Below, one piece after another: positions 1,877 through 43,100 of a stretch of 64,000 bases of DNA. The stretch is from Bacilli bacterium (lineage in GTDB: Bacteria > Bacillota_I > Bacilli_A > ML615J-28 > CAG-698), in contig JAGCUR010000005.1 in the NCBI GenBank assembly GCA_017962745.1, positions 7,193-71,192 of the forward strand, given 5' to 3'. The position numbers and the translations under genes are program-made. The stretch's first letter is position 1, and each line of letters opens with the position of its first letter. Under the pieces are notes generated by a model. The model made no database searches. It had not been told where the DNA came from and saw only the letters and a program-made list of their open reading frames with translations.

Positions 1877-1910
1877 AGAACATATTTCTTAGGAAATATG
1901 TTCTTTATTT
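1877..1910. terminator. Bidirectional rho-independent terminator between convergent rqcH and nth
   Basis: Hairpin aagaacatatttc-ttagg-aaatatgttctt flanked by A and T runs; overlaps the 3' end of nth. Confidence 0.6.
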
Positions 1911-2524: not shown

Positions 2525-3116
2525 TATTAAATTTCTCTTGTAAATTGCTATCTACTTTACTATCTTGAGTTCTAGTTGTATCCATTAAATAAGCATCTAC
2601 GAATCTAGAACCTATTTTTTTCTTCATCGCACAAGTTTTGATAGCTTCACTTACTTCTTCATATGTATATTCATCATCAATGATCCAATGATTGATCATT
2701 TGTAAATCCATTGCGGATGGAGTTTTATTAAAGTAAGTTGCAAAGTCTTCAGCTACTTTTTTAACGATGCTAGTTTTACTAACTTCATCGTTATTAGCAT
2801 CATCTCTATCAAGCAGTGTTGCTAGGCGGTTATAAATACCATCAAGGTTAATAACTTCCCCGTTTTCACCGATATCAATAGTTACATAGCCTCTCTCAAC
2901 TAGTCCTACGATCTTTTTACTAACTTGATTAACATCAATACTCATCTTTGATGCTACACTTGCTGCATCTAGATTCTTTTTGTATTTGATTAATTCGTTA
3001 ATCTTAATTAAGATGATGGCATCAACTTCATCTAAATCAAGGCAAAAATACTTTTCTAATACTAATTTATCAAAATCGATTACTTGGTTTTTAATTAATG
3101 TATAATATTGACTCAT
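2502..3116 (-). CDS. dnaD: DnaD-domain replication initiation / membrane attachment protein
   Basis: 204 aa; N-terminal winged-helix-like region and C-terminal DnaD/DDBH2-like region; lies immediately upstream of nth as in the B. subtilis dnaD-nth arrangement. Confidence 0.6.
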   Translation of the reverse strand: MSQYYTLIKNQVIDFDKLVLEKYFCLDLDEVDAIILIKINELIKYKKNLDAASVASKMSIDVNQVSKKIVGLVERGYVTIDIGENGEVINLDGIYNRLATLLDRDDANNDEVSKTSIVKKVAEDFATYFNKTPSAMDLQMINHWIIDDEYTYEEVSEAIKTCAMKKKIGSRFVDAYLMDTTRTQDSKVDSNLQEKFNNVFNSLK

Positions 3117-3823
3117 TATTTATTACCTGCCACAATTCCTAATGCATTTTTAGCGGCTATTTGTTCCGCTTCTTTTTTAGTCTTACCAATACCTTTACCT
3201 AACATTATACCATCATGATATACAGCTACTTCAAAAGTACGATCATGAGCAGGTCCAGATGATGATAATAGTTCGTAGTTAACACTATTTCTACTTTCTG
3301 CTTGGATGTATTCTTGAAGTTTGCTCTTATAATCGATAAAGAAACCATAATCATCAGTTTTCATCTTTGGAAAAACATGTTTAACTAAGAAGTCCCTAAC
3401 ATATTCCATATCGTGGTCTAAATACATAGCCCCAAGAAATGATTCAAAGACATCTCCGATTATAGCATCACTAATGCCATCGTTATATCTAACCCCATGA
3501 CCAACTAATATTAGTTTATCAATTTCTAATTCTTTCGCATAAGTAGCGTTTGCTTGTTCGCAAACAAACTTTGCTCTAATCTTAGTCATCGTACCTTCTG
3601 GGATATTACGGTTATCGTATAAGTATTCGGCTACTAAAAAGCCAAGTATTGAATCCCCTAAGAATTCTAATCTTTGATAATTCTCAAGTTTTTTGCCTTT
3701 AGTTTCGTTGACATAAGTTTGATGGGTAAAAGCTTGTTCATATAAACGCATTGAGTTATAAGTTAAGCCAAGCTTTTTCATCACCTTTTTAAACTCAGGT
3801 GCAAAACTAAATTCTTCACTCAT
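3116..3823 (-). CDS. rnc: Ribonuclease III
   Basis: RNase III signature ERLEFLGDS and C-terminal dsRBD (KGIGKTKKEAEQIAA); 235 aa. Confidence 0.95.
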   Translation of the reverse strand: MSEEFSFAPEFKKVMKKLGLTYNSMRLYEQAFTHQTYVNETKGKKLENYQRLEFLGDSILGFLVAEYLYDNRNIPEGTMTKIRAKFVCEQANATYAKELEIDKLILVGHGVRYNDGISDAIIGDVFESFLGAMYLDHDMEYVRDFLVKHVFPKMKTDDYGFFIDYKSKLQEYIQAESRNSVNYELLSSSGPAHDRTFEVAVYHDGIMLGKGIGKTKKEAEQIAAKNALGIVAGNK

Positions 3824-8732: not shown

Positions 8733-9587
8733 TTATTCGTCTTTTATTTCTTCTTCAATTTCCTCAGGACTCTTAGCATCCTTAGCAGTAGCTGTAATTT
8801 GTGATGCTATTTTTAATTCTTCTTGACGCTTATTAGTTAAGTATCTTACAAAGAAGAATAGTGGAATTGTCATAGCAACCATAACGATTGACCAGAATTG
8901 TGATGGAGTTAAACCGGATACAAATTGGCCACGGTCATCTCCTCTAACAAATTCAATCAAGAAACGCCATATACCGTATGCCCCAGTATAAATTGGGAAT
9001 GTATAGTAGAACTTCTTCTTAAGAACTAAAAACATCATTAGTCCACATAATAAGAATAAGAAGGCTGCTTCCATTAGCTGAGTTGGCAGTAAATGATCAC
9101 CATGATACATATTTACTGCAAACCAAGAATACCATTTACCTTCAGGTACTTCCATACCATAACAGCATCCCGCAAAGTTACAACCGATTCTGCCAAATCC
9201 ATGGGCAATCGTGATGCAACAAGGTGCAATCGGTAAAATATCCGTAATTCTACCGCTTAGTTTTGGTCTTCTAATCATATAGATAATAATGAATGTAGCT
9301 ACACCAAAGATAAGTCCACCAATGAATGTTAAGTTTTCTAATGAGAAATGAAAACCAGCTGATGGGTCTTCTAAATAATTATAGAAATCTTGCCAAAGTG
9401 ATGCTCCTAAAAAACCAAGTAGAATTGATACATAGCCAAGCATTTCTGTAAACTCTAAAAACTTAGGATCTACTTTAATCTTTTTACCCATAAATCTAAG
9501 TAAAACGATACAAGCAATAATACCAATACCTATACATATTCCGTATAATGTTACCCACCTACCAGCAATTAATCGATCTGGATACAT
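8733..9587 (-). CDS. lgt: Prolipoprotein diacylglyceryl transferase
   Basis: Multi-TM protein with Lgt-like motifs (HGFGRIGCNFAGCCYG, PTQLMEA); 284 aa with a charged C-terminal tail. Confidence 0.85.
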   Translation of the reverse strand: MYPDRLIAGRWVTLYGICIGIGIIACIVLLRFMGKKIKVDPKFLEFTEMLGYVSILLGFLGASLWQDFYNYLEDPSAGFHFSLENLTFIGGLIFGVATFIIIYMIRRPKLSGRITDILPIAPCCITIAHGFGRIGCNFAGCCYGMEVPEGKWYSWFAVNMYHGDHLLPTQLMEAAFLFLLCGLMMFLVLKKKFYYTFPIYTGAYGIWRFLIEFVRGDDRGQFVSGLTPSQFWSIVMVAMTIPLFFFVRYLTNKRQEELKIASQITATAKDAKSPEEIEEEIKDE

Positions 9588-10556: not shown

Positions 10557-11138
10557 TTACTTTTTATTTTTAACTTTTTTGTGTCGATAATAAAAATCAA
10601 CACTGTATTTTTTAATAAATTCTCTAACAATTAATAAAATTGCACAGACGATTAAATATCTACCAATTGAAATTGGCGTAACTATAAAAGGTATAAAGAT
10701 ACATACAAATAATGCTACTAGTGGCGGTACTACCATCACTAGCCCAAATGTTTGAATGAATGTCTTTTTAAAAATTACTAAGAATACATTTCTTAATACT
10801 AATTCAATAGCACTAAACATTAGGCTATAGAATAATAAATCATACCATTTACCTTCACACCAACTAATATATCCACTTAAGCCAATAAATAGTAAGGCTG
10901 TAGATATAATGTAATATAAAGATTCGATTAAAATCGTTAAGAAGTTACGCTTCGGTGCTTTTATGGAAATGACACGAATTTGATTTTTATCAACACCCAT
11001 TTGTTGACTTAAGTCATCAAGCATTTGTTGCATCTCTTTTTCCACATCTTCTGCAGTCTTCTTTTTTGGTTTATCTTCTTTCTCTTTAGTCTCTTCTTTT
11101 TTATCTTTTGGTTCTAATTCGTTTTTATTATCTTCCAT
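10557..11138 (-). CDS. Hypothetical membrane protein (charged N-terminal 60 aa, then 3-4 TM helices)
   Basis: ORF with a K/E/D-rich N-terminus followed by hydrophobic helices. No recognisable family. Confidence 0.5.
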   Translation of the reverse strand: MEDNKNELEPKDKKEETKEKEDKPKKKTAEDVEKEMQQMLDDLSQQMGVDKNQIRVISIKAPKRNFLTILIESLYYIISTALLFIGLSGYISWCEGKWYDLLFYSLMFSAIELVLRNVFLVIFKKTFIQTFGLVMVVPPLVALFVCIFIPFIVTPISIGRYLIVCAILLIVREFIKKYSVDFYYRHKKVKNKK

Positions 11139-13978: not shown

Positions 13979-18066
<4,088 letters not shown>

Positions 18067-18086
18067 TTTGGTCCTCCTTTTATATT

Positions 18087-19721
18087 TTAATTTGGTTTAA
18101 AATTTGATTTTAAAGATACAGTGCAGTTGAATACTAAATTATCATCAGTTGTATCTTCATCAACTCGGTAATATCCATCACGGATGAATTGATACATATT
18201 ACCAATCTTGTATTCATTAGCACCTTCAACGTAACCATCTAATACTTCCCAAGAATTAGGGTTAACGCATTCAGTAATATCTTTTTCTTCATCTGGAATA
18301 ATTAAGACATCGAATTTGTTGAACTTAGCAGCCTTAGCAGTCGTTGCTTCCACAAATCCAATTGTTCCATTAGGCTTTCTTTCATTAAATCCAGATCCAG
18401 ATAAAGTAGCAGGATCGTAAGTTGCATGAACGCAAGCAATATTACCATCTTTATCATAATCTACATCGTTAGCTTTAATAAAGTAAGCATGGAATAATCT
18501 AACTTCTAAACCTAAAGCCAAACGTTTATATTGTCTATTAGGTTTTTCTAAACAGAAGTCATCTTGTTCAATATATAAATATTTTGAAAAAGCAATCTTT
18601 CTTTCGCCTAATGCTTCATTTTCTTGGTTATTAGATGCTACTAAATATTCAATTTTTCCTTCTGGATAATTATCAATTACGACCTTTAGTGGTTTAGTAA
18701 CAGCCATAATGCGGTTAACTTTAAGTTTTAAATCTTCTCTTACGAAATGATCTAACATACCATCATCAACTGTAGAGTTAATGCGTGATAAGCCCGCTGC
18801 TAAAATGAATTCTTTAATTGCTTCTGGACTTACACCACGTCTTCTTAAACCTGCTAGTGTTGGCATACGTGGATCATCATATCCTTTAACTTTGCCACTA
18901 TCTACAAGCGCCTTTAAGTATCTTTTACTCATTACCGTATTTGGAATATTTAAGCGACCAAATTCGATTTGTTCCGGAACATGTTCCATTTCGCATTCTC
19001 TAACTACCCAATCATATAATGGACGGTGATCTACATACTCTAAACTACAAAGAGAATGTGTAATACCTTCAATTGAATCTTGCAAAGGATGCGCAAAATC
19101 ATACATTGGATAAATGCACCATTTATTACCTTGACGGTGATGATTGATATGAATGATTCGATATAATACAGGATCACGCATATTGATGTTAGGTGAAGCC
19201 ATATCAATCTTCGCACGTAATGTTTTTTCCCCATCTTTATAAAGACCATTTTTCATGTTCTCAAATAGTTCTAAGTTTTCTTCTACGCTTCTATTTCGAT
19301 ATGGTGATTCAATTCCAGGAGTAGATAAGCTACCACGGTATTTATTAACTTCTTCGGCACTTAAATCACAAACATAAGCTAAACCTTTACGGATTAGCTT
19401 TTTAGCTAATTCGTATTGTGCTTCAAAATAATCAGAACCAAAGAATACATTAGCTGGATCATATCCTAACCATTTAATATCATTCTTGATCGCCTCTACA
19501 AAACTAGCATCTTCTTTAACGGGGTTTGTATCATCAAATCTAAGATTTGTTTTACCATTAAAGCACTTAGCTAATTCAAAATTAGTAACTAGCGCTCTAG
19601 CATGTCCGATATGTAAATAAGCATTTGGTTCAGGTGGAAATCGTGTAACGATTTCACTAACCTTACCACTTGCTAAATCCATTTCCATTTTTGTTTTAAT
19701 AAAATTGGTAATTTCTGCCAT
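18087..19721 (-). CDS. glnS: Glutaminyl-tRNA synthetase
   Basis: RFPPEPNAYLHIGHA, NLRFDDTNP, RAKIDMASPNI, NKWCIYPMYDF, ITHSLC and VMSKR closely follow E. coli GlnRS motifs. Confidence 0.85.
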   Translation of the reverse strand: MAEITNFIKTKMEMDLASGKVSEIVTRFPPEPNAYLHIGHARALVTNFELAKCFNGKTNLRFDDTNPVKEDASFVEAIKNDIKWLGYDPANVFFGSDYFEAQYELAKKLIRKGLAYVCDLSAEEVNKYRGSLSTPGIESPYRNRSVEENLELFENMKNGLYKDGEKTLRAKIDMASPNINMRDPVLYRIIHINHHRQGNKWCIYPMYDFAHPLQDSIEGITHSLCSLEYVDHRPLYDWVVRECEMEHVPEQIEFGRLNIPNTVMSKRYLKALVDSGKVKGYDDPRMPTLAGLRRRGVSPEAIKEFILAAGLSRINSTVDDGMLDHFVREDLKLKVNRIMAVTKPLKVVIDNYPEGKIEYLVASNNQENEALGERKIAFSKYLYIEQDDFCLEKPNRQYKRLALGLEVRLFHAYFIKANDVDYDKDGNIACVHATYDPATLSGSGFNERKPNGTIGFVEATTAKAAKFNKFDVLIIPDEEKDITECVNPNSWEVLDGYVEGANEYKIGNMYQFIRDGYYRVDEDTTDDNLVFNCTVSLKSNFKPN

Positions 19722-19725
19722 CTTC

Positions 19726-20385
19726 TTACCTCTTAATAACTTCTAATTCGCTGATATTTTTCGCATTTGCATACTTTTTAAAAATATCGATTGTTTCTTT
19801 TTTATCTTTATCGATTTCAGATTCTGAAAAGCAAATAACAAATACTAATATTTTTTTAGTAGTAGGCCTAATCATTGTCCTTGCCGTATCGGATGTGGTA
19901 GAACCAAATGGTCCAACTTCGTCCACATACACCGGAATATTAGAGACATTGATTTGCCCTCTACCAATGCCAAAATATAAGTCACTTTCTTTACCTAATC
20001 TAATATGCACATCTCCTACTATTTTTTCATAGTCTAAAATAGCAGTCGATCTTGCTAACTTAATCGATAAGATATTACCAGCATCAACTAAATTGTTGAT
20101 GCGGTAAAGGCCATATCCTTTAACAAGTCTTCGGTATAAAGATTCTACAGCTAGACGGTACCTACTAGGATCTTTACCTAAAGCTTTATAAGAATCTCTT
20201 GCCTCTTTGATAAGAGGAATATTCAACACCTCTTCTAGTGAATACTCCTCTTTAATCATTGATTCATATTTTTTAATCTCATCTTCAATAATGCTACTAT
20301 CTTTTAGCTCTACATCCATAGAGTAAGCTAAAACATTAAATGAAGGTAATTTATTTAATATTTCTCTTTCAATTTCAATAATCAT
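19726..20385 (-). CDS. B3/4 domain protein (PheT B3/B4-like tRNA-binding domain, standalone)
   Basis: INNLVDAGN..ILDYEKI.GDVHIRLGKE..YFGIGRGQINVSN..VYVDE matches the B3/4 domain core; 219 aa. Confidence 0.6.
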   Translation of the reverse strand: MIIEIEREILNKLPSFNVLAYSMDVELKDSSIIEDEIKKYESMIKEEYSLEEVLNIPLIKEARDSYKALGKDPSRYRLAVESLYRRLVKGYGLYRINNLVDAGNILSIKLARSTAILDYEKIVGDVHIRLGKESDLYFGIGRGQINVSNIPVYVDEVGPFGSTTSDTARTMIRPTTKKILVFVICFSESEIDKDKKETIDIFKKYANAKNISELEVIKR

Positions 20386-20387
20386 TT

Positions 20388-23300
20388 TTATTTATTCTTT
20401 TTATCTCTTTTAGCTTGATATTTCTTAATCAAATTACCAGCTTCTTCAATCTTATCTACAAGCTTTAAATACTCTTTAACGCGTTTATCTTTGCTAGCTT
20501 CATTAACTTGCTTCTTAGCATAATCGCGATTATTCTTTAAGTTATCGCCTTTTGCTTTCAAATCATTAATTTGATTTTTCAAATTCGCGATTTCATTAGT
20601 ATCATTGCTTGCTTTCAATACTTCATTTAATCCCGCAATCTTTTCATTGTTTTCAGCGATTGCTAAATCGAATGATAAGTATTGTTCTTTTAACTTCTTA
20701 TATTCTCTAACAGAAGCTATATCGTTACTATAAGTCTTTTCTGCTTGACAGAATGATTCATATTTCTTATGAAGTTCAACCTCTTTAGGACTAATCTTAC
20801 TTTCTTTAAGTTCGATTTCTTCTTCCTTTTCTGGTGCTACTTCTTTTTTAACTTCTAAATCTTCATAAACATTATTATTTAGAGCTTCTTTAACTTCCTC
20901 TTTATCAACTGGACTTATAGTATCTTTACCACTAACTACTTCACCTTTATCGTTTACTCTAATATCAGTGATATCATCTTCAGCGATTAGTTTTCTTGGT
21001 TGACGAGATACTTGTGAATCTAAGAATTCACGATATTTACGTTCTCTAATCTCATCTTGGCTTTCAATAATACGTGGTTCGTCATCTTTAACAACATTAG
21101 CTTCTTCAAACTTCTTATTAAGTTCTGCTTCACGGGCAAGCTTAGATTGTTCCTTAGCTTGTTTGTTAAGATAAGTTTCTTTTAAAGCTTTCTCTTCTTC
21201 TTCAAGTCTTAGAAGTTGATCTTCAATACCTTTAATAATATTTTGATATCTTAGATTAATCTTACGAACATCATCATCGCTTAATTTATTTAATTGACTT
21301 TGACGAGTAGTTAATTCAAAGAACACTTTTTGTTTTTCAACTTCAAATTTTTCTAAGGCTTCTTCGCTATGATCTTCCCCATTTTGATAATCAGCACTAA
21401 TCTCTTCAATTCTAGCTTTTAATTCTTCAATCTTTTTCGCATATTCTTTTTGAAGAGCATCATTATTGCTTAACTCAATCTTATGGTTAGCGTTCTCTAC
21501 AACTTTTCTTTCCTCTAATGATTTACGCGTACGACGAATATTATTAAGTTTATTTAAATATTCGCTATCAAAAGTAATAACTACTTGTGGTTCATCGCTT
21601 GCTTCAATTAGTGGAGTTTGTCTAGCTTCTAGTGGAGCTAACTCTTCAAATTCAGCTACTTTTTCTTCATAAGAATCATAAATTGGGGCTTCCGTACTTA
21701 CAATATCACCATCTGGAGTACTTGCAACTTCTTCTCCACTTACTAAATCTTTCTTAACTTCAGCAGGAGCATCTAAGTTAACTACTACCGCATCTTCGCT
21801 AACTGGAGTTACAACTGGACTAACTACATTACCTTTCTTAATGTCTTCAACAGCTGAATCAAGGTTAGCATCTAACTCTTTAATTGATTTAGCATATACA
21901 TCATCAAGCATTTCTTTTTTAGCCTTGATTGTATCTTGAAGTTCAGCACCAGCATATTTAGTAGCGATATTTAATTTATCGTTTTCATTAGCATAAACAA
22001 ATTCATTTTGTTTCTTAGCAGCTTTATAAGCATCAAGTAAACTTGCTAAATTATTAAAGCCTTTTAATTCATTAGCTTTAAATATATCTTTAAGTTTAGA
22101 TGCATATTCTTCTAATTCAGAATAGTTAATATTGCTGCTTTGAGTTTCTTGCTTTTTAGCTAATGCTTCATTTAAATCTTTGATTTGTGCTTCTAAAGCT
22201 TCAATCTTAGCATTTAATGCATCGCTTTCTTGCTTTCTTTCTTTTTGTAAACCAGCAATAACTTGATCACGTTTAGCAATTTCACGATCATGATCTTCTC
22301 TAACCATGTTATCGTATGGATCATTATATCCATAGAATGGACCTTGATATGGCACACGTGGTCCAAACATATCTCTTCTAGATAAGTCTTGAACTAAATC
22401 AGCAATCTTATCGATTTGTTGATCACGTTTGCTTTCTTTAATTGAATCTTCTAAACGCTTAATCTCTAATTCTTTTTCTTTCAAAGCTTCATATAATTCT
22501 TGTTCAGCTTCTAAATGCGCATTCTTTTCATTTTCTAAAGCTTCACGATAATTTTCAATTACTAAAGCTGTATTAGCAATGCTAGTTTCATTTTCTTCTA
22601 CACCTTTAATCATTTCATCAAGTTGTTTACCGATTGCTTCACTTTGTTTAGCATAAGCTGCTTTTTCAATTTCTAATTGTTCTTTTAGCTTATCTACTTC
22701 ATTAGCTAATCTTACAACTTCTAATTCTTTAGCTTTGAGTTGTTCTCTTAAGTCTTCATCACTAGATAAATCTGGATTATCATTAGTTAAGTTTCTAACT
22801 TTTTCACTTAAGCGAGCGATTTCTTCATTTAATGAATTATTTAATTCATTTAAACTATTAATGCTTACATTAGCTTCTGCAAGTTTACGGTCTAAATCAA
22901 TGTTATTAGCAGTTAGATCACGATTTTGCGCATTAGCTTCTTTTAGCTTAGCTTCTAATTCTTTAACATCTTCTGCAAGTCCAGCATATTTCTTAGCTTC
23001 ATCTTCTCTAATTTCTGCTTCTTTAATAACATTTTCTTTCTTGTATTTAGCTAACTCATCTTTAGCTTCTTTAATAGCTTCATTAGCTTTTGCATCAATT
23101 TCTTGTTTGTATAAGTTAAGGTATGATTCTTGTAATTCTACTTCTTTCTTACCTTTTTCTAACTCTCTATTCTTTTCTACAAGCTTGCTTCTTTCTTCTT
23201 CAACTTCACTTAAAACATCTGCATCCTTAACATTTCTTTCCTTAGCATTAGTTAAGTCATTCTTTAATAATTCAATTTCTTTATTAGCAAGTTCTAATTT

Positions 23301-24806
23301 CTTTTCATAATCAGCTTTTAAGTTATCATTTTCAGTTTGCTTGCTTAAAAGAGAATTATTGGCTTTAGTAAGTTGCATCTTAGCAGTAGTTAATTCTTTA
23401 CTAGCTTGATCAACTTCTTTTTGCTTATCCTTTAATTCTTTCGCATGTTCTTTTTGAATTGCTTTAACTTTCGCATTAAATTCTTTATTTAAGTTTGCTT
23501 CAATCTTAGAAGTATCGACACTGCTTGCATTCTTTAATTCATTTGCTTCCTTTGATAATCTTTCAACTTCTGAATCAAATCTATTTTGTAAAGCCTCATA
23601 TTCTTCATCTTTAGCTTTCAATGCTTCGTTATATTTTTCATTAACGCCTTCTTCTAATTTAGCGTTTTCTTCTTTTAGACGCGCATTTTCTTCTAAAGCT
23701 AAAGCTTCTTTAGCTTCAAGTTCTTTAACTTTAGCTTCAAGATTAGCAATTTCTTCTCTAAGCTTAGCAAGGTTAGCATCTTCAATTTCTACTGGTTCTT
23801 CTTTAACTTCAGCTTGAACCTTAGCTAACTTATCTTTTAAGTTCTTATTCTTAGCTTCAAGTTCTTTAAGATTCTCTTTAACTTGATCATCTTTAGCCAT
23901 CTTGCCATCCATGATTCTTTGTTCTAAATCTTTTTTAGCGGCAATTTGTTCACGAAGACGTTGTAAGCTTTCGCTAACATTTTCATCTTTTTTAGCTGGG
24001 CCTTCTTTTTTAACACCAGTTTTCTTTGGTCCTAACTTTTCAAGACTTGTATCAGGAGTAGTCTTTTTAGCTACTTTGATATCATCGCTAGCTTCATTTT
24101 CTTGATTCTTAGAAGCATTTTCTAAGCTAGCCAGTTTATCTTCAGCTGCTTTACGAGCTATTGCTCTAGCTTCAGCTTTTTCTTTTTCACGCTTAATTAA
24201 AGCTTCTAAGCGCGCTTTTTCTTTTTCTTTCTCTTTAGCTTCTTTAATTGCTTGTTTAGCTTTTTCTTTAGCTTTAGCTTGTTTAATTGCTTGTTTTTCT
24301 TTTTCTTTAGCTTTTGCTTTCTTTACAGCTTCTTTTCTTTTAGCTGCTTCTTTAGCTTTAGCTTGTTTTTCTTTTTCTTTCTTAGCTTGCTTTTGCGCTT
24401 CTGTTAATGGTTTCTTTGTAGAAGCTTTTTTAGCTGCTGGCTTTTTAGCAGCTGGTTTTTTTGCTGGAGCCTTGGCAGCTGGCTTTTTAGCAGGTGCTGC
24501 TTTCTTTTCTTCTTTTGGAGTAGCATCTTCTACCTTTGCTTCTTCAGCTTTTGGTTCTTCAGCTTTTGGTTCTTCAGCTTTTACTTCTTCTACTTTTTCT
24601 TCTTGTTTTACATCTTCATGAAGCGGTTCGCTTGGCGAAGAGTCTTTGTTTTCGTTTGCTTTTTCGTTGATTGCGTTTTCGATAATGGCGCTATCGTCAT
24701 CTAGCAAACTCTTTTTCATATCCGCTAATTCTTTTTCGATTGAAAATTCTTCATCGTGTTTATTTGCGTTTTTTTGTTTATTTTCCATTCTAAATTCCTC
24801 CGCCAA
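20388..24806 (-). CDS. Giant coiled-coil protein with N-terminal Lys/Ala/Pro-rich (histone H1 / AKP-repeat-like) tail; function unknown
   Basis: 1472 aa; N-terminal PKAEE x3, AKKPAAK repeats and KAKEKEK runs; then more than 1000 aa of heptad-rich E/K/L sequence; no TM and no Walker motifs (not SMC). Confidence 0.8.
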   Translation of the reverse strand: MAEEFRMENKQKNANKHDEEFSIEKELADMKKSLLDDDSAIIENAINEKANENKDSSPSEPLHEDVKQEEKVEEVKAEEPKAEEPKAEEAKVEDATPKEEKKAAPAKKPAAKAPAKKPAAKKPAAKKASTKKPLTEAQKQAKKEKEKQAKAKEAAKRKEAVKKAKAKEKEKQAIKQAKAKEKAKQAIKEAKEKEKEKARLEALIKREKEKAEARAIARKAAEDKLASLENASKNQENEASDDIKVAKKTTPDTSLEKLGPKKTGVKKEGPAKKDENVSESLQRLREQIAAKKDLEQRIMDGKMAKDDQVKENLKELEAKNKNLKDKLAKVQAEVKEEPVEIEDANLAKLREEIANLEAKVKELEAKEALALEENARLKEENAKLEEGVNEKYNEALKAKDEEYEALQNRFDSEVERLSKEANELKNASSVDTSKIEANLNKEFNAKVKAIQKEHAKELKDKQKEVDQASKELTTAKMQLTKANNSLLSKQTENDNLKADYEKKLELANKEIELLKNDLTNAKERNVKDADVLSEVEEERSKLVEKNRELEKGKKEVELQESYLNLYKQEIDAKANEAIKEAKDELAKYKKENVIKEAEIREDEAKKYAGLAEDVKELEAKLKEANAQNRDLTANNIDLDRKLAEANVSINSLNELNNSLNEEIARLSEKVRNLTNDNPDLSSDEDLREQLKAKELEVVRLANEVDKLKEQLEIEKAAYAKQSEAIGKQLDEMIKGVEENETSIANTALVIENYREALENEKNAHLEAEQELYEALKEKELEIKRLEDSIKESKRDQQIDKIADLVQDLSRRDMFGPRVPYQGPFYGYNDPYDNMVREDHDREIAKRDQVIAGLQKERKQESDALNAKIEALEAQIKDLNEALAKKQETQSSNINYSELEEYASKLKDIFKANELKGFNNLASLLDAYKAAKKQNEFVYANENDKLNIATKYAGAELQDTIKAKKEMLDDVYAKSIKELDANLDSAVEDIKKGNVVSPVVTPVSEDAVVVNLDAPAEVKKDLVSGEEVASTPDGDIVSTEAPIYDSYEEKVAEFEELAPLEARQTPLIEASDEPQVVITFDSEYLNKLNNIRRTRKSLEERKVVENANHKIELSNNDALQKEYAKKIEELKARIEEISADYQNGEDHSEEALEKFEVEKQKVFFELTTRQSQLNKLSDDDVRKINLRYQNIIKGIEDQLLRLEEEEKALKETYLNKQAKEQSKLAREAELNKKFEEANVVKDDEPRIIESQDEIRERKYREFLDSQVSRQPRKLIAEDDITDIRVNDKGEVVSGKDTISPVDKEEVKEALNNNVYEDLEVKKEVAPEKEEEIELKESKISPKEVELHKKYESFCQAEKTYSNDIASVREYKKLKEQYLSFDLAIAENNEKIAGLNEVLKASNDTNEIANLKNQINDLKAKGDNLKNNRDYAKKQVNEASKDKRVKEYLKLVDKIEEAGNLIKKYQAKRDKKNK
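24420..24600. repeat. Short tandem in-frame repeats (15-bp PKAEE units and AKKPA units) inside the coiled-coil gene
   Basis: ttcagcttttggttc x3 and gctggctttttagcagctgg-type reiterations visible in the DNA. Confidence 0.7.
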
Positions 24807-25848
24807 ATAATCCCCTAATTATTTCAAATGATATGTAACCATATACGGTACTTGCACATAAGTATGTGCCTTTAAATAATATAAACCTCGTGATGTAAAG
24901 GAATGTCTTTCTTCCTTTCATCTTTGCCATCTTGTGTGTATATGCATCGCTTAGGGCTTCAATGTCACTAAAGTCCACATCTGTAATACCCGTATCACTA
25001 ATTGGAAGTGGGTCTAGTTTACATTCTTTTTTACGCAATGCTTTTTGATAGTATTTTAATGTTTTCTTTGATTTACGATTGAAGTCGCTATTTACTTTGT
25101 TTGTTAATTTTTCATTTAAGCTAGCATGAGTTTTAGTGTAACTTGTAAATTCATGACAAACTGCATGATACAAGCCAATAAATAACATACTAGTGATCGC
25201 AATATAAATTCCTACTACTGCTACGATATTTACCCACTTTGAGCTAAATGCAGCTTCTCTAGCTAGTTCTAAGTTTAAATGTAATTCTTTACCAAATAAT
25301 GTGAAGTCTTTTGCAATACCCCATAATTTAGTAAGTCCAAAATACATTACAAGTAGGGCTGCAAGTCCTAAAGGTAAAAAGATATAAGCACCGACTTTAA
25401 TCTTAGCGATATCGTTAGGTCTAACAGCTTCTTTTACATCGCTTACTTTTAAAATAACTTTTGATTTATTTTCTTTGTATTCTTTAATCCAAGCTTTAAT
25501 GGCATTTAGAATTATCTTTTTACGTTTACCAAGTTTAAATTCTTCTGTCCTTAAAACTTCTTTAATCGTTCTAGTTTCTTTTCTTTTAACTTTTACTTTA
25601 AAGTCTTCGATTGAATGAACATTACATTTATCTGCTTTATTAACGCGGAACATGAAAGGATTACCATTAATTGCATGTTCGTGTTCATAAACTACTTCTT
25701 CGTTATATCGTTTAATGATTTGTTCTTTTTGTTCAATGTCTTCATCATTTGCTATACTTTGATTTTCACTATCTACATCATTAATTCTATTTTCATCTTT
25801 TGATGTAGGGTCAAGATCATAAGTTTTAATTTCACGATTCTTACGCAT
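24790..25848 (-). CDS. Membrane protein (cytoplasmic charged N-domain, 2 TM, C-terminal domain), translationally coupled to the coiled-coil gene
   Basis: 352 aa; TM helices IFLPLGLAALLVMYFGL and VNIVAVVGIYIAITSMLFIGLY; its stop overlaps the start of the 1472-aa ORF by 17 nt. Confidence 0.6.
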   Translation of the reverse strand: MRKNREIKTYDLDPTSKDENRINDVDSENQSIANDEDIEQKEQIIKRYNEEVVYEHEHAINGNPFMFRVNKADKCNVHSIEDFKVKVKRKETRTIKEVLRTEEFKLGKRKKIILNAIKAWIKEYKENKSKVILKVSDVKEAVRPNDIAKIKVGAYIFLPLGLAALLVMYFGLTKLWGIAKDFTLFGKELHLNLELAREAAFSSKWVNIVAVVGIYIAITSMLFIGLYHAVCHEFTSYTKTHASLNEKLTNKVNSDFNRKSKKTLKYYQKALRKKECKLDPLPISDTGITDVDFSDIEALSDAYTHKMAKMKGRKTFLYITRFILFKGTYLCASTVYGYISFEIIRGLFGGGI

Positions 25849-26419: not shown

Positions 26420-26486
26420 TTTTTATAATAAAGTGCCATTAGTGGCCACTTCCCCTTTTATCTCATTATACTACAAGGCCCCTGAT

Positions 26487-26522
26487 TTTACAAACTAAAA
26501 AAATCACATCCCAAACCGGATA
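26487..26522. terminator. Rho-independent terminator downstream of tsaD (bidirectional A/T tracts)
   Basis: Stem atcacatcc / ggatatgat with a 6-nt loop flanked by AAAAAAA and TTTTTT. Confidence 0.55.
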
Positions 26523-28571: not shown

Positions 28572-29008
28572 ATTGCATCCACCACCTTGTCATATTCACT
28601 ATCTTCCCAAGATATAGTTAATTCTCTTTTATCATTTCCTAAATTACTAATAAATATATGGAGGCAACCTTTTGGTAACAAACTTTCAATATAGTGAGAC
28701 CATTCAATTATACTAACTCCACCCATTTCAAAATATTCAGCTAGTTCAAACTCATCATCGTTAGTTCTATATACATCTAGATGATATAAAGTTAGTCTAC
28801 CTTCATATATTTTCATGATGACAAAAGTAGGGCTATTGACAATTCCTTCTACTCCTAACCCTTTAGCGATACCTTTAGTCATAGTAGTCTTACCTGCTCC
28901 TAAATCGCCATCTAGGGCAATTACCATATTAGCTTCTACAACTTTACCGATTCTTTCGCCTAAGTCAATCATTTGTTTAGCATTATTAATATAAATGATC
29001 TTTTCCAT
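28562..29008 (-). CDS. tsaE: tRNA threonylcarbamoyladenosine biosynthesis ATPase TsaE (YjeE)
   Basis: Walker A GDLGAGKTT; 148 aa; operon context. Confidence 0.9.
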   Translation of the reverse strand: MEKIIYINNAKQMIDLGERIGKVVEANMVIALDGDLGAGKTTMTKGIAKGLGVEGIVNSPTFVIMKIYEGRLTLYHLDVYRTNDDEFELAEYFEMGGVSIIEWSHYIESLLPKGCLHIFISNLGNDKRELTISWEDSEYDKVVDAICE

Positions 29009-29077
29009 AACTTGCCTCTAATAATTTCATTTTAAAAGGAACCAAAGTAAATATTAACTTTAGTTCCAAATATTTAC

Positions 29078-30406
29078 TTAATCTAAATCTTTCTTTAGCT
29101 CTTTTGCTAACTGTTCGTAACCTGGTTTACCAAGTAGAGCAAACATATTTTTCTTATATGCTTCTACACCTGGTTGGTTAAATGGATTAATACCTAAAAT
29201 ATAACCACTTATTCCGCAACTTATCATAAAGAAATATAAAAGATATCCAAAGTTTTCTGCGTCTAACTTATCAATTGATATAACAATATTTGGTACCCCA
29301 CCGCTAACATGGGCTAGCTTTGTACCTAGGGTTGCCATATCCTTTACATAGTTAACATCTTTACCTTCTAAATAATTTAAGCCATCTAAGTTTTCTTCAT
29401 CATGACCAACTACGATATTTTTATCTGGATTATCGATGTTAACGATTGTTTCAAACATCGTTCTAGTTCCATCTTGGAAGAACTGGCCAATTGAATGTAA
29501 GTCCGTAGAATAAACAACACTTGCTGGGAATAAGCCTTTACCATCTTTACCTTCGCTTTCCCCGAATAGTTGTTTCCACCATTCGCTTAAATATTTAACT
29601 TTAGGTTCATATGTAACTAAAGCTTCAATCACTTTACCTTTGCGGTATAAGGCGTTTCTTGTTGCCGCATATAAAACTGCTTGGTTATTTAGGGAATCAT
29701 CTTTAGTATAATCATTATATGCTTGATTAATTCCTTTAACTAAAGCTTTAATATCAATGCCACTAGCTGCAATTGGAAGGAGTCCCACTGGAGTTAAGAA
29801 TGAGAATCTTCCCCCTACATCATCAGGTACGATAAATGTTTTATAGCCAGCTTTATTTGCTTCTTGGCGTAAAGCTCCTCTTTTTGCATCAGTTGTAGCG
29901 ATGATTCTAGATGCATAAGCTTTACCATATTTTTTAATTAATAATTCTTTGAATAATCTAAAAGCAATCGCAGGTTCTGTAGTAGTTCCTGATTTAGAAA
30001 TAACATTGATACAAAAATCTTTATCTTCTAAATATTCTAGGGTTTCTTTAATGTAAGTACTAGATAAACTATTACCAACAAAGATAACTTCTAAATCATC
30101 TTTATCTGGATAATATGGTTTTAATGCACTAATTACGGCTTTAGCTCCTAAATAACTTCCACCAATACCAATTACTACTAATACCTTAGCCATCTTCTTG
30201 ATAGCTTTTACAGTATCAATAATATCGCACAATTCTTCTTCAGTATATTTAGATGCAAAATCAATCCATCCTAAGAAGTCATTACCTTCACCAGTTTTTT
30301 CTAAAAGCGTATGAAAAGCTTCTTTTGCAACTGGTGCTAGCGCTTTAATTTCTTGTTCGCTTACAAAATTATAAACGCACTTTAAATCCAAACCAAGTTT
30401 ACTCAT
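29078..30406 (-). CDS. pgi: Glucose-6-phosphate isomerase
   Basis: 442 aa, Firmicute-type PGI (IGIGGSYLG SIS motif, GESEGKDGKGL). Confidence 0.9.
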   Translation of the reverse strand: MSKLGLDLKCVYNFVSEQEIKALAPVAKEAFHTLLEKTGEGNDFLGWIDFASKYTEEELCDIIDTVKAIKKMAKVLVVIGIGGSYLGAKAVISALKPYYPDKDDLEVIFVGNSLSSTYIKETLEYLEDKDFCINVISKSGTTTEPAIAFRLFKELLIKKYGKAYASRIIATTDAKRGALRQEANKAGYKTFIVPDDVGGRFSFLTPVGLLPIAASGIDIKALVKGINQAYNDYTKDDSLNNQAVLYAATRNALYRKGKVIEALVTYEPKVKYLSEWWKQLFGESEGKDGKGLFPASVVYSTDLHSIGQFFQDGTRTMFETIVNIDNPDKNIVVGHDEENLDGLNYLEGKDVNYVKDMATLGTKLAHVSGGVPNIVISIDKLDAENFGYLLYFFMISCGISGYILGINPFNQPGVEAYKKNMFALLGKPGYEQLAKELKKDLD

Positions 30407-31405: not shown

Positions 31406-31810
31406 TTATAATGTGTACCTCCTTACGAGTTTTTTCCATTCAGTCTCGCTGATTAAATGGTTAGTGGTTTCCTTTTTTGCTTGAGAATCTATTGCATCAG
31501 CTATATTCATATATAATCCGTAATCACCCAACAAATCTGCTTCTTCAGCCTTATCCACTAAATCTTTCATTGTGTTTGATAATTCAAAATCAATTTGCAC
31601 ATCGTTGTTAATATAATTATATGATCTATTCGCATAAATGTCGTTTAGTATTAAATTAGTTAAATATCGATTGATATTATCAACTTTGCTCAACTTATTC
31701 ATTATTAACTTGTTATCATTTCTAATTCGCAATTTAATAGTCTTATAATTATCGCGAATAAAACTATTAATATATTCTTGTTGATTAAACATTTCCATCA
31801 CCATAATCAT
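31406..31810 (-). CDS. Hypothetical protein
   Basis: 134-aa ORF (likely start MEMFNQ), N/I/Y-rich, no recognisable motifs. Confidence 0.35.
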   Translation of the reverse strand: MIMVMEMFNQQEYINSFIRDNYKTIKLRIRNDNKLIMNKLSKVDNINRYLTNLILNDIYANRSYNYINNDVQIDFELSNTMKDLVDKAEEADLLGDYGLYMNIADAIDSQAKKETTNHLISETEWKKLVRRYTL

Positions 31811-34249: not shown

Positions 34250-35296
34250 TTATTGTGGATTATTTTCCATCATCGCATTTAGATAAACTGCTTCGTTTTC
34301 GCCATCCCATGTTAGGCCAATCCAAGCATTATCATTAGTATAATCATAATTAGTATATTCACCATCTACTCTTGGGCCAGTGCATGTCCAGTCAGCAAGT
34401 GCACCATCTAAAAATACTTTTAGTAGAGCAAATGTAGACTCACTTAATTCTTCACCACCAATAATATCAAAGCAATAACTTGTAGCACCTTCTGAATATG
34501 GATAATCATCAACTTCTAATCCTTCTAATTCAGGAAGTAGAATACCAGTTACTTTTTGGAATTCGCTTCTTGCTTTGGCAAATGATTCGCTCATATTTGC
34601 AGAAGCAGGTTCAGGAAGTGTAGGAGCAGTCACTTGAGAACCAGTCTTGAATTCAGTTACTTCATAACTGAAGCTTGAACTTTCTCCTTCTACTGTAGCT
34701 GCAAATTCAACTTTCATTGTAATACCTGTTTCTTTATCCACATATACTTTATATGCAAAATTAGAAATACCTGCAATTTTTCCAATTGCTCCACCAATTC
34801 CTAAATTTAAATCATAAGTATAACAATTTCTACCTGCAACTTTTGCATCTGCACCTTTCTTGAATTGTCCATTATATGCATTTGCCCAATATAACCAACT
34901 AGTAGATGCTACTTTGTAACTGCTAATATATGATTCGCCTTGTTCTTTTTGAACAGTCGATTCATATTGATAACCAGCTTCATTATTATAAGAATAATAA
35001 TGAACGTTGTTTTCTTCCTCTAAAAGGGCTGCACCTTCACCATCTGTTAGCATCCATACAACGTTACCTTTAGCACCAATTGTAAAAGTACCGCTATCAC
35101 CTTCATCATCACTATAATGGAAAGTAATTAAATAGCCATCGCTTTCCATCTTTTCTAGCTTTGCTTGTGATTCTTCTTGTGTAATCTCTAAACTGTCAGT
35201 TCCGCCTTCACCGCCAGTAAGTTTACCTGCAAGATCGCATCCAGTTAAAGCGAATGTAAATAAAAATAATAATAAAAAACTTAATACTTTTTTCAT
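34250..35296 (-). CDS. Lipoprotein of unknown function
   Basis: Signal peptide plus lipobox (LFTFALTGC); 348 aa, mostly beta-rich G/Y/T composition. Confidence 0.65.
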   Translation of the reverse strand: MKKVLSFLLLFLFTFALTGCDLAGKLTGGEGGTDSLEITQEESQAKLEKMESDGYLITFHYSDDEGDSGTFTIGAKGNVVWMLTDGEGAALLEEENNVHYYSYNNEAGYQYESTVQKEQGESYISSYKVASTSWLYWANAYNGQFKKGADAKVAGRNCYTYDLNLGIGGAIGKIAGISNFAYKVYVDKETGITMKVEFAATVEGESSSFSYEVTEFKTGSQVTAPTLPEPASANMSESFAKARSEFQKVTGILLPELEGLEVDDYPYSEGATSYCFDIIGGEELSESTFALLKVFLDGALADWTCTGPRVDGEYTNYDYTNDNAWIGLTWDGENEAVYLNAMMENNPQ

Positions 35297-40024: not shown

Positions 40025-40101
40025 TGGTCGGAATAATGAGATTCGAACTCATGACCTCTAACTCCCGAAGCTAGCGTTCTACCAAGCTGAACTATATTCC
40101 G
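40025..40101 (-). tRNA. tRNA-Pro (anticodon CGG)
   Basis: 77-nt cloverleaf: 7-bp acceptor CGGAATA/TATTCCG, D arm GTTC-AGCTTGGTA-GAAC, anticodon arm CTAGC-TTCGGGA-GTTAG (CGG), T arm ATGAG-TTCGAAT-CTCAT, discriminator A, encoded CCA. Confidence 0.85.
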
Positions 40102-40178: not shown

Positions 40179-43100
40179 TTATTTAAGAGCGCCTTTAATC
40201 TCTAATGTTTTTAAATCAACACTAGCTTTTTCTAAATCATAATTTCTAAAGTATATTATTACCTTTCTAACATTATCTACATCTAGTCCTAAATCATTTA
40301 AAGCATTTTCATATTCATCAAGTTGAACTTTGTATTTTTCAATTAAAGAAGCTTTAAATACTTCTTCATCGCTAATGTATACTGCTTCATCTGACTTATA
40401 ATCAAATATGATAGCATCCTTTCCACTAATTGCTAGTAAGTCGATTGATCCATTAGAAATAATATCTTTATCTTTTAAATAACTATAATTTAATTCTGAA
40501 TATAAATCATATTTATAAATATTATTATCTGAATAATATTTATTTAGGGCAATCGCGCACGTATGAATAAATCTAAATAAGTTATCATAGTCTTCAATAA
40601 TTGAAGCATATAATTCTAGTGCCTTATTAACTGATGCATCCACATCATGATTATTATCTTTAACCATTAGTTCAAATGCTTTATGCATAATCGTCCCCAC
40701 AATTGCGGATTGTGGACGAGGGGTAGATAAGTCTTCATCTTGATGCTTCAAGAATTCTTGATACCTAATCTTAGATTTATTTTCTAGTTTTGATGGAGAA
40801 ATGTAAGTTAGGCCTTTATGGGTATTGCTAAAGTCTAATTCACGCACTTGATAATCGCTACACTCTTTCTCATCTACTATTAAAGTCTCTTCAGCTTCAA
40901 GACTTCTTAAACCTTTTATTCCATAAATATCATTTTCATATTCAAAGAATAACCCTTTAGATTTATCATCATATGCATAAATGAATGCTTCTTTAGGGCG
41001 AGTTGCAATAACGTATTCAAGTCTTGCTAGTTCTTCATCTTCTTCTTTTTGGATTAACCTAGCAGCATCTTCATCCATTAGATCGATTTTTGAATAATAA
41101 AAATGATCTTCTTTTAGGCGTTCATTGAGATAAAGGATACCACCTTTATAAGCAGTTGCTGGATGTTCTTCTTTAGTCACTTTATCTAAAGCAACCCAAA
41201 TAACAATTTTAGCTTCTAAACCTTTAGCTTTGTGGGTATTAATGATGCTTACGCAGTTAGCATTATCTTCAATTAATGATTCATATTCAATTGCATTATT
41301 AACATAATCATTAAATCTAGCATCTAACTCGTTACCGTTATAATAATCAGATGCAAATACTTCTTCAATCATTTGGAATAGTTTTGATCTAATATTATTA
41401 ATAATAAATCCTTCATTAATACTATCTTCTTCAATCAACCATTCTAAATGATTAGCAAGATAAATTGCTTGGCCATATGCGGACATATCATTAGTTTTAG
41501 CTAATAATTCTTCATATAATTTATTAACTAAATCATTTTCTTGTTCTATTGTTAAGCCATTAAATTTATCTTTATAAATATTTTTAAATACCGACGAAGC
41601 GAGTTCAATTGCTCTATCACTAACACAAGCGATTGAAGCAAATAAATTCACAAATGAACGAAGTGCTTGGTATGCACTAAAGTTACTCTCTCCTGCTACT
41701 TTTGTTGGGATACCGTATTTAGTAAATTCTTGCACATAGTCGCTCATTGCATTATGGTTTTGCATCAAAACCATAATATCTTTAAACTCGACTGGTTTAT
41801 AGCTTACTATATATTCGCCATTTTTATCTTTAGTTACATCTCTTACTTTTTTATTATTAACTAAATATAAAATAAGTTTAGCAATTGTTTCTGGATCTTT
41901 ATTTAAATGATTGTAAAAACCAATTAAATTATCTTCATTTAAATAATCAGCTTCATCTACAATATTCTTTTTAGCTACTAGCATATCGTTATATGCTTCA
42001 CTAGTTAAGCAAATATTTCTAAATGTGTCATTAACATATTCAATTATTTTATTGTTAGATCTAAAATTGATATTTAAGTTGTAACATTGCGCATTAGATT
42101 TGCCTTTTTCGCCTTGGCCAAACATATCGATATCATATAATTTCATCGTATCGAAATATACATCTGGTTCAGCTCCTCTAAAGCGATAAATTGATTGCTT
42201 GGGATCTCCTACTAAATATAAGGCATTATCAATAAATTTATCATCTTCACGCGTAAGTAGTAATGCTATATCTCTTTGTAAATGATCAGTATCTTGATAT
42301 TCATCAATATAAATATGTTTATAATGCTTCTTTAGTTTAGCTAATACATCTTTGTTTTCTTTTAACAGTTTTGCTACTAAATAAATACATTGGTTATTAG
42401 ATATATTATCTTTATCTTTATCGATATAATCTAAATACTCTAAATATGCTTTGTAAGCATAGCCTACAATCTTAACTGAATAATCTTTACGGTAAGCATC
42501 TTTGCGTTCATTATAAACTTTGATCTTCGCTTCAAAGTTAGCTTTAAATTCTTGATATTCATCTTTAACTACATTCTTTCTATATTTATTACCATTAAAT
42601 GGAAAGACGAATTTGTATTTTAGAATATCACCAAAGTCTACTTTTTTATCTCCATATATTTCTTCATACTTACCAGTAATTAGAATTGCTGCTTCATCGT
42701 TTAATACTTTTACTTTTTTAGGGTTCTCATCATAATTTGATAATTCAACCATGTAAGCCATATTTTCTTTAATGAAATCAAAATATTCATAATAATCATT
42801 TTCAATATCTTGGATAGTTAATCCGCTACTAAAATCATGATTATAAATATCTTTTAGTTCAATCTTATCTACATAGTTAGTTAGAACATTAAAGATATTT
42901 TCCATATCTTTTTTAATAACTATGTGTCTAGCTCCACTAATAGATAAATCATCAATATCTTTTTGGCTTAGCTTTTTAAAGAAAGCATCAAATATATCTT
43001 TTTTTCGCTTCAAATCATCTTCATCTACTAACACTTTAAAGCTTGGATTTAGATTTGCATAAATAGAATTCTCTCTTAAGATATCATTACAGAATTTATG

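Follow-up and report, generated by a model that had tools for sequence, protein, structure and literature searches.

A fast-evolving giant coiled-coil protein and its membrane-protein partner form a conserved gene pair in uncultured Bacilli

Introduction

A 64,000-nucleotide (nt) stretch of a Bacilli bacterium genome (GenBank assembly GCA_017962745.1, contig JAGCUR010000005.1, positions 7,193 to 71,192 of the forward strand; here called the window) carries an uninterrupted open reading frame (ORF) of 1472 codons on its minus strand (20388..24806), next to the gene for a membrane protein of 352 amino acids (aa). What kind of protein does this giant ORF encode, and what could the two genes do together? 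An earlier note, made from the nucleotide sequence without database searches, had drawn attention to the ORF and proposed that it specifies a membrane-anchored cytoskeletal or nucleoid-tethering filament in a possibly wall-less lineage. The ORF is present as that note described it and, judged by its relatives, is a real, conserved gene. We find that its product belongs to a new and unnamed family of bacterial coiled-coil-rich scaffold proteins, a broad class already known, within which large size, an N-terminus of charge blocks, and a membrane partner of its own set the family apart. We tentatively favor a reading in which the pair forms a membrane-tethered coiled-coil scaffold or tether; its basic tail would touch a polyanion, for which the nucleoid is the most plausible candidate.

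The RFN20, RF39, ML615J-28, and Acholeplasmatales-like Bacilli with reduced genomes include lineages without peptidoglycan and without sporulation (PMC10868615). Reduced-genome Bacilli are abundant in guts and rumens and are known almost solely from metagenome-assembled genomes (MAGs), and the pair is a concrete candidate for a structural system serving shape, division, or nucleoid organization in them. The two genes evolve fast yet are strictly kept as a unit, inside a housekeeping operon and without a counterpart in annotated families. We regard the pair as a solid lead for the cell biology of uncultured reduced Bacilli, supported so far by sequence and predicted structure; should the giant protein turn out to be merely a lineage-specific coiled coil with a minor role, the result would still be a useful annotation of an unnamed family.

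Start site and transcriptional context of the giant gene

The mechanical start of the 1472-codon ORF is a TTG at position 24806, from which it runs over the final 17 bases of the 352-codon ORF upstream. Direct reading of the junction (...GGC GGA GGA ATT TAG A ATG GAA AAT...) reveals an ATG at 24788, 8 nt beyond GGAGGA and 1 nt beyond the TAG that ends the membrane-protein gene, and close homologues all start with M(A)ENKNKN... at the equivalent Met. Because of this spacing and the Met starts of the homologues, the giant protein is probably a product of 1466 aa translated from the ATG and not from the overlapping TTG. The overlap between stop and start that had been reported earlier thus belongs to the TTG start only, while the tight coupling holds: the two genes are effectively coupled, as judged from their spacing, though 1 base apart rather than overlapping. 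They lie in a run of 14 co-directional genes that extends from cvpA to lgt (8733..9587) with gaps of merely 1 to 37 nt. The sole larger gap, of 150 nt, is upstream of cvpA and contains a promoter-like site.

A Ser/Leu-rich ORF of 191 aa (22735..23310, plus strand) runs antisense to the giant gene. Its sequence is the mirror of the GAA/AAA/GCT-rich codons on the sense strand, and it almost certainly does not represent a gene.

Architecture of the giant protein

Glutamate (16%), lysine (16%), alanine (11%), and leucine (9%) dominate the giant protein, which has one Cys and no Trp. No 19-residue window anywhere in it exceeds a hydropathy of 1.6, and so it has neither a signal peptide nor a transmembrane (TM) segment; a motif search for Walker A ([AG]xxxxGK[ST]) and LPXTG found neither, in line with the absence of Walker motifs reported earlier. 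By these features the protein is cytoplasmic. Near the N-terminus, a predicted helix carries the motif EFSIEKELADMKKSLL, in which F15, S16, E18, L21, M24, K25, L28, and L29 are invariant in an alignment of relatives (A1), and a kindred motif, DFSLE..L.EMK..L, occurs in most distant family members. The helical moment of this motif is not significant (14% of shuffles reach the same value), and we do not claim it as a membrane-binding amphipathic helix.

The motif is followed by blocks of opposite charge. Residues 51 to 95 form an acidic block with two to three AEEPK repeats (net charge of −9), and the next 32 residues (96 to 127) consist largely of Lys (12, 37.5%), Ala (12, 37.5%), and Pro (6, 19%), with no Asp or Glu and a net charge of +12. 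The repeats listed in the earlier note as signs of an extremely charged N-terminus (there PKAEE three times, AKKPAAK several times, and runs of KAKEKEK) are present as AEEPK two to three times, (A)KKPAAK, and KAKEKEK runs. Tandem repeats of 15 bp and 39 bp in the DNA specify them, so that the length of the low-complexity tract differs among homologues. The K/E/A-rich helix that comes next (residues 128 to 225) opens with a conserved KPLTEAQK; together with the K/A/P block it has a net charge of about +28, in an otherwise strongly acidic protein.

The main coiled coil is an unbroken heptad-consistent rod from about residue 265 to 791 (~530 aa), well beyond what shuffled sequences give; at 0.148 nm per residue, a continuous coiled coil of 530 residues would be ~79 nm long. 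Heptad-consistent segments make up about 68% of the protein. Downstream of the rod, the Pro/Tyr/Gly-rich linker PRVPYQGPFYGYNDPYDN is located at residues 810 to 827, as the note had it, and has invariant Y819 and D823 and nearly invariant P813, Y814, and P824 in A1. An AlphaFold 2 (AF2) model of residues 700 to 1466, with a mean predicted local distance difference test score (pLDDT) of 74, has a long helix reaching the linker, the linker itself disordered, and a compact bundle at residues 889 to 985 (pLDDT of 80 to 93). It continues into an acidic linker (residues 986 to 1074) with a net charge of −16, 8 Pro, and pLDDT below 50, a modelled helical hairpin whose opening motif, FDSEYLNKLNNIRR, is conserved throughout the family, a mostly disordered linker with the conserved RIIESQDEIRERK, and a C-terminal four-helix region. 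Three stretches of the C-terminal ~640 to 660 aa are thus disordered in the model (808 to 823, 986 to 1074, and 1233 to 1333). The ORF had been thought to hold more than 1000 aa of heptads interrupted by one linker: the long rod and the linker are there, but the unbroken rod extends over ~530 aa only, and the C-terminal third is modular.

The partner is a membrane protein with a conserved cytoplasmic domain

The 352-aa protein has two strongly hydrophobic segments, TM1 (residues 152 to 176) and TM2 (204 to 232), which agree with the two-TM topology proposed earlier. Its C-terminal helix (317 to 348) is only moderately to weakly hydrophobic here and clearly hydrophobic in relatives, and we therefore conclude that three membrane segments, and not two, are probable. 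The flanks N-terminal of TM1 and after TM2 are rich in Lys and Arg, with an acidic loop of 27 residues between the two helices; by the positive-inside pattern, the N-terminal domain, which bears the invariant NPF and SIEDF motifs, and the segment from 233 to 316 are therefore placed in the cytoplasm. In the AF2 model (pLDDT of 75), the N-domain is small and of the alpha/beta type, the outer loop forms a beta-hairpin, and TM2 runs into a long K/R-rich helix. Across ten divergent sequences, the invariant residues gather in the cytoplasmic N-domain (NPF at 63 to 65, S79, E81, R100, and W120), with a further set after TM2 (F256, Y266-Y267, and K314). Searches of Pfam, NCBIfam, PADLOC, and PHROGs gave no match to this protein, and profile searches of the PDB with two of its alignments returned nothing significant.

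The gene pair is never separated and evolves faster than its neighbors

We compared the window with nine distinct loci from relatives (L001, L003, L004, L005, L008, L009, L010, L011, and L013; the near-duplicates L002 and L012 were not counted). All ten share the order tsaE-tsaB-rimI-tsaD-(variable slot)-membrane protein-giant protein-B3_4-glnS, and pcrA is next after glnS in eight of the nine loci (L013 was read only to glnS). The B3_4 and GlnRS genes (18087..20385, minus strand, in the window) always follow the giant gene with gaps of a few bases (L001, L003, L004, L008 to L011, and L013); a bona fide GlnRS is uncommon in Bacilli. The gap between the membrane-protein gene and the giant gene is 1 to 14 nt in 9 of the 10 loci, window included, and 124 nt in L013. 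The slot upstream of the pair is less constant. It holds a CvpA gene in most loci, which is missing in L010 and L011, while L008 has an added Cpn60-family gene and L013 has two other genes. The CvpA-like neighbor named in the earlier note is therefore borne out in the window, where the 177-aa protein, with four hydrophobic stretches, scores just above the PF02674 gathering cut-off (30.3 versus 29.3 bits, E = 4.7e−7), but its adjacency is not universal. The pairing of the membrane protein with the giant protein, in contrast, is conserved in every relative examined, down to 26 to 33% identity, and the pair stays unbroken even where the two proteins are only 23 to 33% identical to those of the window and CvpA is missing.

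Identity to the window across the loci is 70 to 95% for GlnRS, 65 to 83% for TsaD, and 61 to 81% for the B3_4 protein, and falls to 23 to 31% for the membrane protein and 26 to 33% for the giant protein (partial alignments). By this measure, the membrane and giant proteins evolve much faster than their neighbors. The two also diverge in step (rank correlation of bits per residue of ~0.9 over 8 loci, calculated by hand), and the housekeeping proteins follow roughly the same order of divergence.

Gene content around the block bears on the proposed link to wall-less lineages. In L010, the most distant relative with the pair, YunB, GerA, GerAC, and spore-permease genes stand beside the conserved block (1..226 and 16382..19807), and at least one lineage with the family therefore looks like a spore-former. 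In L008 (1981..2661), L010 (3833..4501), and L011 (3618..4283), tsaE is closely preceded by an Amidase_3 (N-acetylmuramoyl-L-alanine amidase) gene that is absent at that position in the window (29008..29078), L001, L003, L004, and L009, a pattern that may reflect the loss of cell-wall genes in some members of the clade. Given the spore-germination, YunB, and amidase genes of these relatives, the family is not limited to wall-less lineages, and the link to such lineages is unsupported.

The family is confined to uncultured Bacilli and conserves the ends of the protein

A word-indexed search retrieved 9 relatives of the giant protein (82 to 32% identity) and 17 of the membrane protein, all from metagenomes. 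An exhaustive HMMER search of 1.84 billion cluster representatives with a profile of the C-terminal 767 residues gave 26 proteins at E ≤ 1e−3, 14 of them at E ≤ 1e−30, most of which are 1144 to 1679 aa long; with the L013 ORF included, full-length relatives range from 1103 to 1679 aa. For 20 of the 26 we looked up the source names, and these are in all cases those of a "hypothetical protein" from a Bacilli bacterium, Acholeplasmataceae bacterium, or Acholeplasmatales bacterium MAG; the exact 1466-aa sequence is not on record. Pattern scans found the family in one species, a water-buffalo rumen MAG, among 185,579 GTDB species genomes and at three loci in metagenomes, counts that underestimate the family, as each scan rests on one or two peptide patterns. 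On these data, the family is confined to a radiation of uncultured Bacilli, although its fast divergence means that counterparts in more distant Bacilli could exist undetected. This distribution fits the reduced-genome orders of uncultured Bacilli described previously (PMC10868615). The window pair shares the traits of the family: the rod-start motif, the conserved C-terminal helical region, and a membrane protein of 317 to 354 aa with NPF and SIEDF immediately upstream.

Conservation within the giant protein is uneven. In an alignment of 23 sequences (A6), it centers on the rod start, a few positions at the rod end and in the bundle, and the C-terminal helical region, of which the four-helix part shows the widest conservation (L1339 and Y1440 are the same in 23 of 23). 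A scan of 24 members with a regular expression recovered the rod-start motif, LQKLREQIxAQKxLE, from 20, and L275, K286, L288, and E289 within it are nearly invariant in A6. From this motif to a second one, ERNxH..EQKL, the distance is ~320 to 490 residues where both were located, and it is apparently longer in the largest proteins. All 28 members analyzed for charge are strongly acidic overall (net −17 to −158), and all 28 have a cationic patch N-terminal of the rod (best 40-aa window of +5 to +16). The make-up of the patch varies by subfamily, from the K/A/P type of the window to K/T/S runs, (ERLAKEKEK)n, which stands in place of the residue 128 to 225 helix in distant members, and the PLLKKRxLP repeats of the spore-former subfamily. 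The histone-H1-like K/A/P tail described earlier is thus real as an acid-free tract at residues 96 to 127, but relatives keep it as composition only. A conserved rod start and C-terminal third, with a rod of variable length, fit a spacer with specific ends, and, with a patch kept only in composition, this is the pattern expected of a spacer or tether that has specific points of attachment and one electrostatic contact that is not sequence specific.

In the spore-former subfamily (P0038, P0041, P0043, and P0044), up to six copies of (S)PLLKKR(D/E)LP(T/E) occur within the N-terminal 30 to 200 residues. They resemble multiple copies of one short linear binding motif more than they do plain low complexity.

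The giant protein matches no known family

Pfam, NCBIfam, PADLOC, and PHROGs gave no family match to the giant protein, and a Pfam scan of 23 family members turned up no domain at E ≤ 1e−3. No enzymatic or ATPase domain was detected in the giant protein, and Pfam and NCBIfam scans of it and its relatives found no RNA-binding or DNA-binding domain. Profile searches of the PDB with three alignments returned generic coiled coils only, all within the rod: dynactin CC1, vimentin, myosin, crescentin (E = 1.9e−4), Ndc80, methyl-accepting chemotaxis proteins, and arms of SMC proteins. Since these proteins are mutually unrelated, the matches reflect composition and not descent. A Foldseek search with the AF2 model of residues 700 to 1466 gave no match below E = 0.2. 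The view that the protein is not an SMC stands, as neither an SMC, MukB, or RecN family nor a surface-protein family was found by Pfam, NCBIfam, PDB profiles, or fold search. We found no description of the family in the literature.

Several known systems resemble the pair in part. Scy and FilP of Streptomyces and crescentin of Caulobacter are large cytoplasmic proteins, mostly coiled coil and without a nucleotide-binding domain, that form scaffolds at the membrane, and the giant protein is like them in its central coiled-coil rod and further helical segments (heptad scan and AF2). It shares no homology with them beyond coiled-coil composition (the crescentin match is weak) and differs in its polycationic N-terminal tract, segmented C-terminal third, and dedicated, probably co-transcribed membrane protein. 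HMW2 of the Mycoplasma pneumoniae terminal organelle (~1800 aa, mostly coiled coil with proline-rich interruptions) is cytoplasmic and works with membrane proteins. It is similar in size, coiled coil, proline-rich breaks, and provenance from the reduced Bacilli/Mollicutes lineage, but no mycoplasma protein is among the 26 profile matches (names for 20), no attachment-organelle genes are nearby, and the family also occurs in a spore-former-like relative. EzrA and DivIVA are likewise helical-bundle or coiled-coil proteins that organize division or poles at the membrane. EzrA, of about 560 aa, has its own N-terminal TM helix and spectrin-like triple-helix repeats, and DivIVA is small and binds the membrane directly, whereas the giant protein has no Pfam match to either and no TM segment, its membrane segment being on a separate polypeptide.

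Parts of the N-terminal region also have known counterparts. K/A/P composition gives non-specific DNA binding in the C-terminal domain of histone H1 and in the "PAKKA" tails of mycobacterial HupB. Residues 96 to 127 have just this composition in common with them; the sequence of the tract is not conserved (K/T/S or KEKE-type in relatives), and no HU or H1 globular domain accompanies it. Residues 128 to 225, rich in K/E/A and poor in hydrophobic residues, resemble the helical spacers of TolA domain II and ER/K single alpha-helices, but their net charge is +16 where ER/K helices are balanced, and there is neither a Tol-Pal context nor a TolA domain III.

A membrane-tethered scaffold is the tentatively favored reading

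In the mechanism that we propose, the 352-aa protein would lie in the cytoplasmic membrane, its conserved N-domain and K/R-rich helices turned to the cytoplasm. A shared transcript would also yield the giant protein, whose gene begins one base further on, and this protein would probably dimerize via its ~530-aa heptad rod to a length of about 80 nm. One of its conserved ends, either the N-terminal helix or the C-terminal four-helix region, would probably dock on the partner, and the polycationic tract would be suited to a polyanion, with nucleoid DNA more plausible than RNA or anionic lipid. Such an assembly would serve as a long spacer or tether that gives order to the region from the membrane to the cell interior. 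The cytoplasmic location, the rod that behaves like a canonical coiled coil, and the conserved membrane partner suit a membrane-associated scaffold such as the filament suggested in the earlier note; the wall-less framing of that note is unsupported.

Several points weigh against this reading. Filament formation and DNA binding are both inferred, as is the contact between the giant protein and its partner. The basic tract is conserved as composition only, and the cationic patch is weak in five members (P0033, P0035, P0038, P0040, and P0044; best window of +5 to +7). K/E-rich helices can be inert single-alpha-helix spacers and need not be binding modules. The joint divergence of the pair agrees with co-evolution without proving it, as it cannot be separated from shared phylogeny. 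The neighborhood consists of housekeeping genes (for tRNA modification, GlnRS, and DNA repair) that offer no clue to function, CvpA is not always adjacent, and the lineage is uncultured.

The same head-rod-tail layout with a long heptad rod could belong to a self-assembling cytoskeletal protein like those of intermediate filaments (IF), of the crescentin, FilP, or Scy type, with filaments under the membrane acting in shape or division and the N-terminal tract serving as a head or spacer without nucleic-acid binding. The A6 profile does match the vimentin and crescentin rods, and the membrane partner could be the attachment site. We hold this to be unlikely, as equally good matches to coiled coils that are not filaments (dynactin, myosin, Ndc80, SMC arms) point to composition rather than kinship, the C-terminal ~660 aa, divided into bundles and disordered linkers, do not resemble an IF rod, and rod length is not conserved. 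It is more doubtful still that the adjacency is inherited gene order only and that the giant protein is soluble with an unrelated role, for example, as a condensate-forming or crowding scaffold acting through its charge-block disordered regions. Such a role would suit the acidic and basic blocks and the three disordered linkers, and the whole tsaE-to-pcrA block is indeed syntenic in all relatives; yet CvpA, Amidase_3, the Cpn60-family gene of L008, and the two L013 genes come and go while the pair is never separated, and both of its genes are clade-restricted and unusually fast-evolving.

Neighbors such as TsaEBD, RimI, an S1-domain protein, the B3_4 protein, and GlnRS could suggest an RNA- or translation-linked scaffold whose lysine-rich tract holds RNA or ribosomes at the membrane, and polycationic tails bind RNA as readily as DNA. 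We judge this to be very improbable: Pfam and NCBIfam detect no RNA-binding domain, and pcrA, ligA, and uvrA follow in the array, so that the neighborhood is not specific to translation. Almost no weight attaches to a secreted or surface-anchored fibrillar protein, such as an M-like adhesin or an S-layer-associated protein. The fibrillar coiled coil with repeats and a faint NCBIfam match to SlaB (E = 0.14, 11 bits versus a 700-bit cut-off) speak for it, but we rule out an M-like or LPXTG-anchored protein on the missing signal peptide, hydrophobic segment, and LPXTG, the highly charged N-terminus, and the C-terminus, KKYQAKRDKKNK; the locus is a housekeeping array and not a surface-protein locus, and the conserved internal motifs are unlike those of hypervariable adhesins. 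Least probable of all is a diverged chromosome ATPase of the SMC, MukB, RecN, or Rad50 type, in spite of the long coiled coil, the absence of smc from its common place after rnc in the window, and weak profile matches to the SMC5/6 and SMC2 arms and the Rad50 coiled coil. In terms of domain content, it is ruled out by the lack of Walker A, of any SMC_N, hinge, or ABC match in 23 members, and of a globular head in the AF2 model of residues 700 to 1466, and the N-terminus is of low complexity. No hinge or zinc hook was matched, and the SMC and Rad50 matches in the PDB are confined to arm segments, come after dynactin, vimentin, and myosin, and are accompanied by many unrelated coiled coils. A phage or defense gene was also considered and rejected.

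Returning to the membrane-tethered scaffold, a bolder version of it, which we consider possible but somewhat unlikely, would make the pair a previously unrecognized membrane-to-nucleoid tether or cortical cytoskeleton specific to the clade of reduced-genome, uncultured gut and rumen Bacilli (RFN20/RF39/Acholeplasmatales-like). The dedicated membrane anchor, a polytopic protein, would fix a rod at least about 80 nm long, the polycationic tail of the rod would grip the chromosome, and the system would predate the loss of wall and spores and have been kept afterwards.

Features of the locus and other genes of the window

Table 1. Coordinates of the gene pair, its parts, and its immediate neighbors in the window
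Feature	Position	Strand	Basis
Promoter-like site TTGTAA-17-TATAAT, 10/12 matches, in the 150-nt gap	26465..26493	-	consensus match only
CvpA-family membrane protein, 177 aa	25886..26419	-	PF02674 Colicin_V/CvpA
Partner membrane protein, 352 aa	24790..25848	-	hydropathy, AF2, charge distribution, family alignment, synteny
Shine-Dalgarno-like GGAGGA of the giant gene, within the 3′ end of the membrane-protein gene	24796..24801	-	direct reading
Giant coiled-coil protein gene, probably 1466 aa	20388..24788	-	ORF list, ATG after GGAGGA, homologue starts, 26 relatives
Conserved N-terminal helix motif EFSIEKELADMKKSLL, residues 14-30	24699..24749	-	alignment A1
Low-complexity tract, residues 51-127	24408..24638	-	composition, tandem DNA repeats
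K/E/A-rich charged helix, residues 128-225, net +16, 10% hydrophobic	24114..24407	-	composition, alignment
Rod-start hallmark motif SLQRLREQIAAKKDLEQRIMD, residues 273-293	23910..23972	-	regular expression, alignment A6
Main coiled-coil rod, residues 271-805	22374..23978	-	heptad scan versus shuffles, profile matches
Pro/Tyr/Gly-rich linker, residues 806-830	22299..22373	-	sequence, alignment A1, AF2 pLDDT <50
Long helix (59 residues) and compact helical bundle, residues 831-985	21834..22298	-	AF2
Acidic Pro/Val-rich disordered linker, residues 986-1074 (89 aa)	21567..21833	-	composition, AF2
Two long helices (modelled helical hairpin), residues 1075-1232, opening with FDSEYLNKLNNIRR	21093..21566	-	AF2 pLDDT ~90
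Mostly disordered linker, residues 1233-1333, carrying conserved RIIESQDEIRERK	20790..21092	-	AF2, alignment
C-terminal four-helix region, residues 1334-1466, basic end KKYQAKRDKKNK	20391..20789	-	AF2 pLDDT 89-96
Stand-alone B3_4-domain protein, starting 2 nt after the giant stop	19726..20385	-	PF03483 E = 2.3e−15; next gene at all loci

Elsewhere in the window, rnc (3116..3823) is followed by a DnaD-like gene (DnaD_N and DnaB_2) and then, by eye, by nth (region 1889..3823, minus strand). The absence of smc from its usual place after rnc, where Bacillus subtilis has smc-ftsY, is thus true for the window and has no bearing on smc elsewhere in the genome.

Several ORFs without a family assignment lie in the same stretch. 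Between uvrA and whiA, an ORF of 193 aa (10557..11138, minus strand) has a K/E-rich N-terminal tail, about four hydrophobic helices, and no Pfam match, and an unannotated gene of 195 aa occupies its place in L004. Two further minus-strand ORFs, of 348 aa (34250..35296) and 134 aa (31406..31810), also have no Pfam match; in place of the former, L004 has a 351-aa gene without a Pfam family on record.

An Rfam scan of the window found only a tRNA-Pro (CGG, 40025..40101). Just past it are two large helicase/nuclease-like ORFs of 1102 and 872 aa (40179..46029, minus strand), AddA/AddB-like by eye, in the region with the lowest GC content of the window (0.26 to 0.29 versus about 0.32 elsewhere).

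Two minus-strand ORFs have informative Pfam domains: one encodes a dCache sensor fused to a SpoIIE/PP2C phosphatase domain (61719..63944) and the other a STAS domain fused to an APH-type kinase domain (57193..58332). A membrane ORF nearby (54279..56309, minus strand) is similar to these proteins by eye only. Together, the three ORFs at 54279..63944 would suggest a partner-switching signaling set in a reduced genome.

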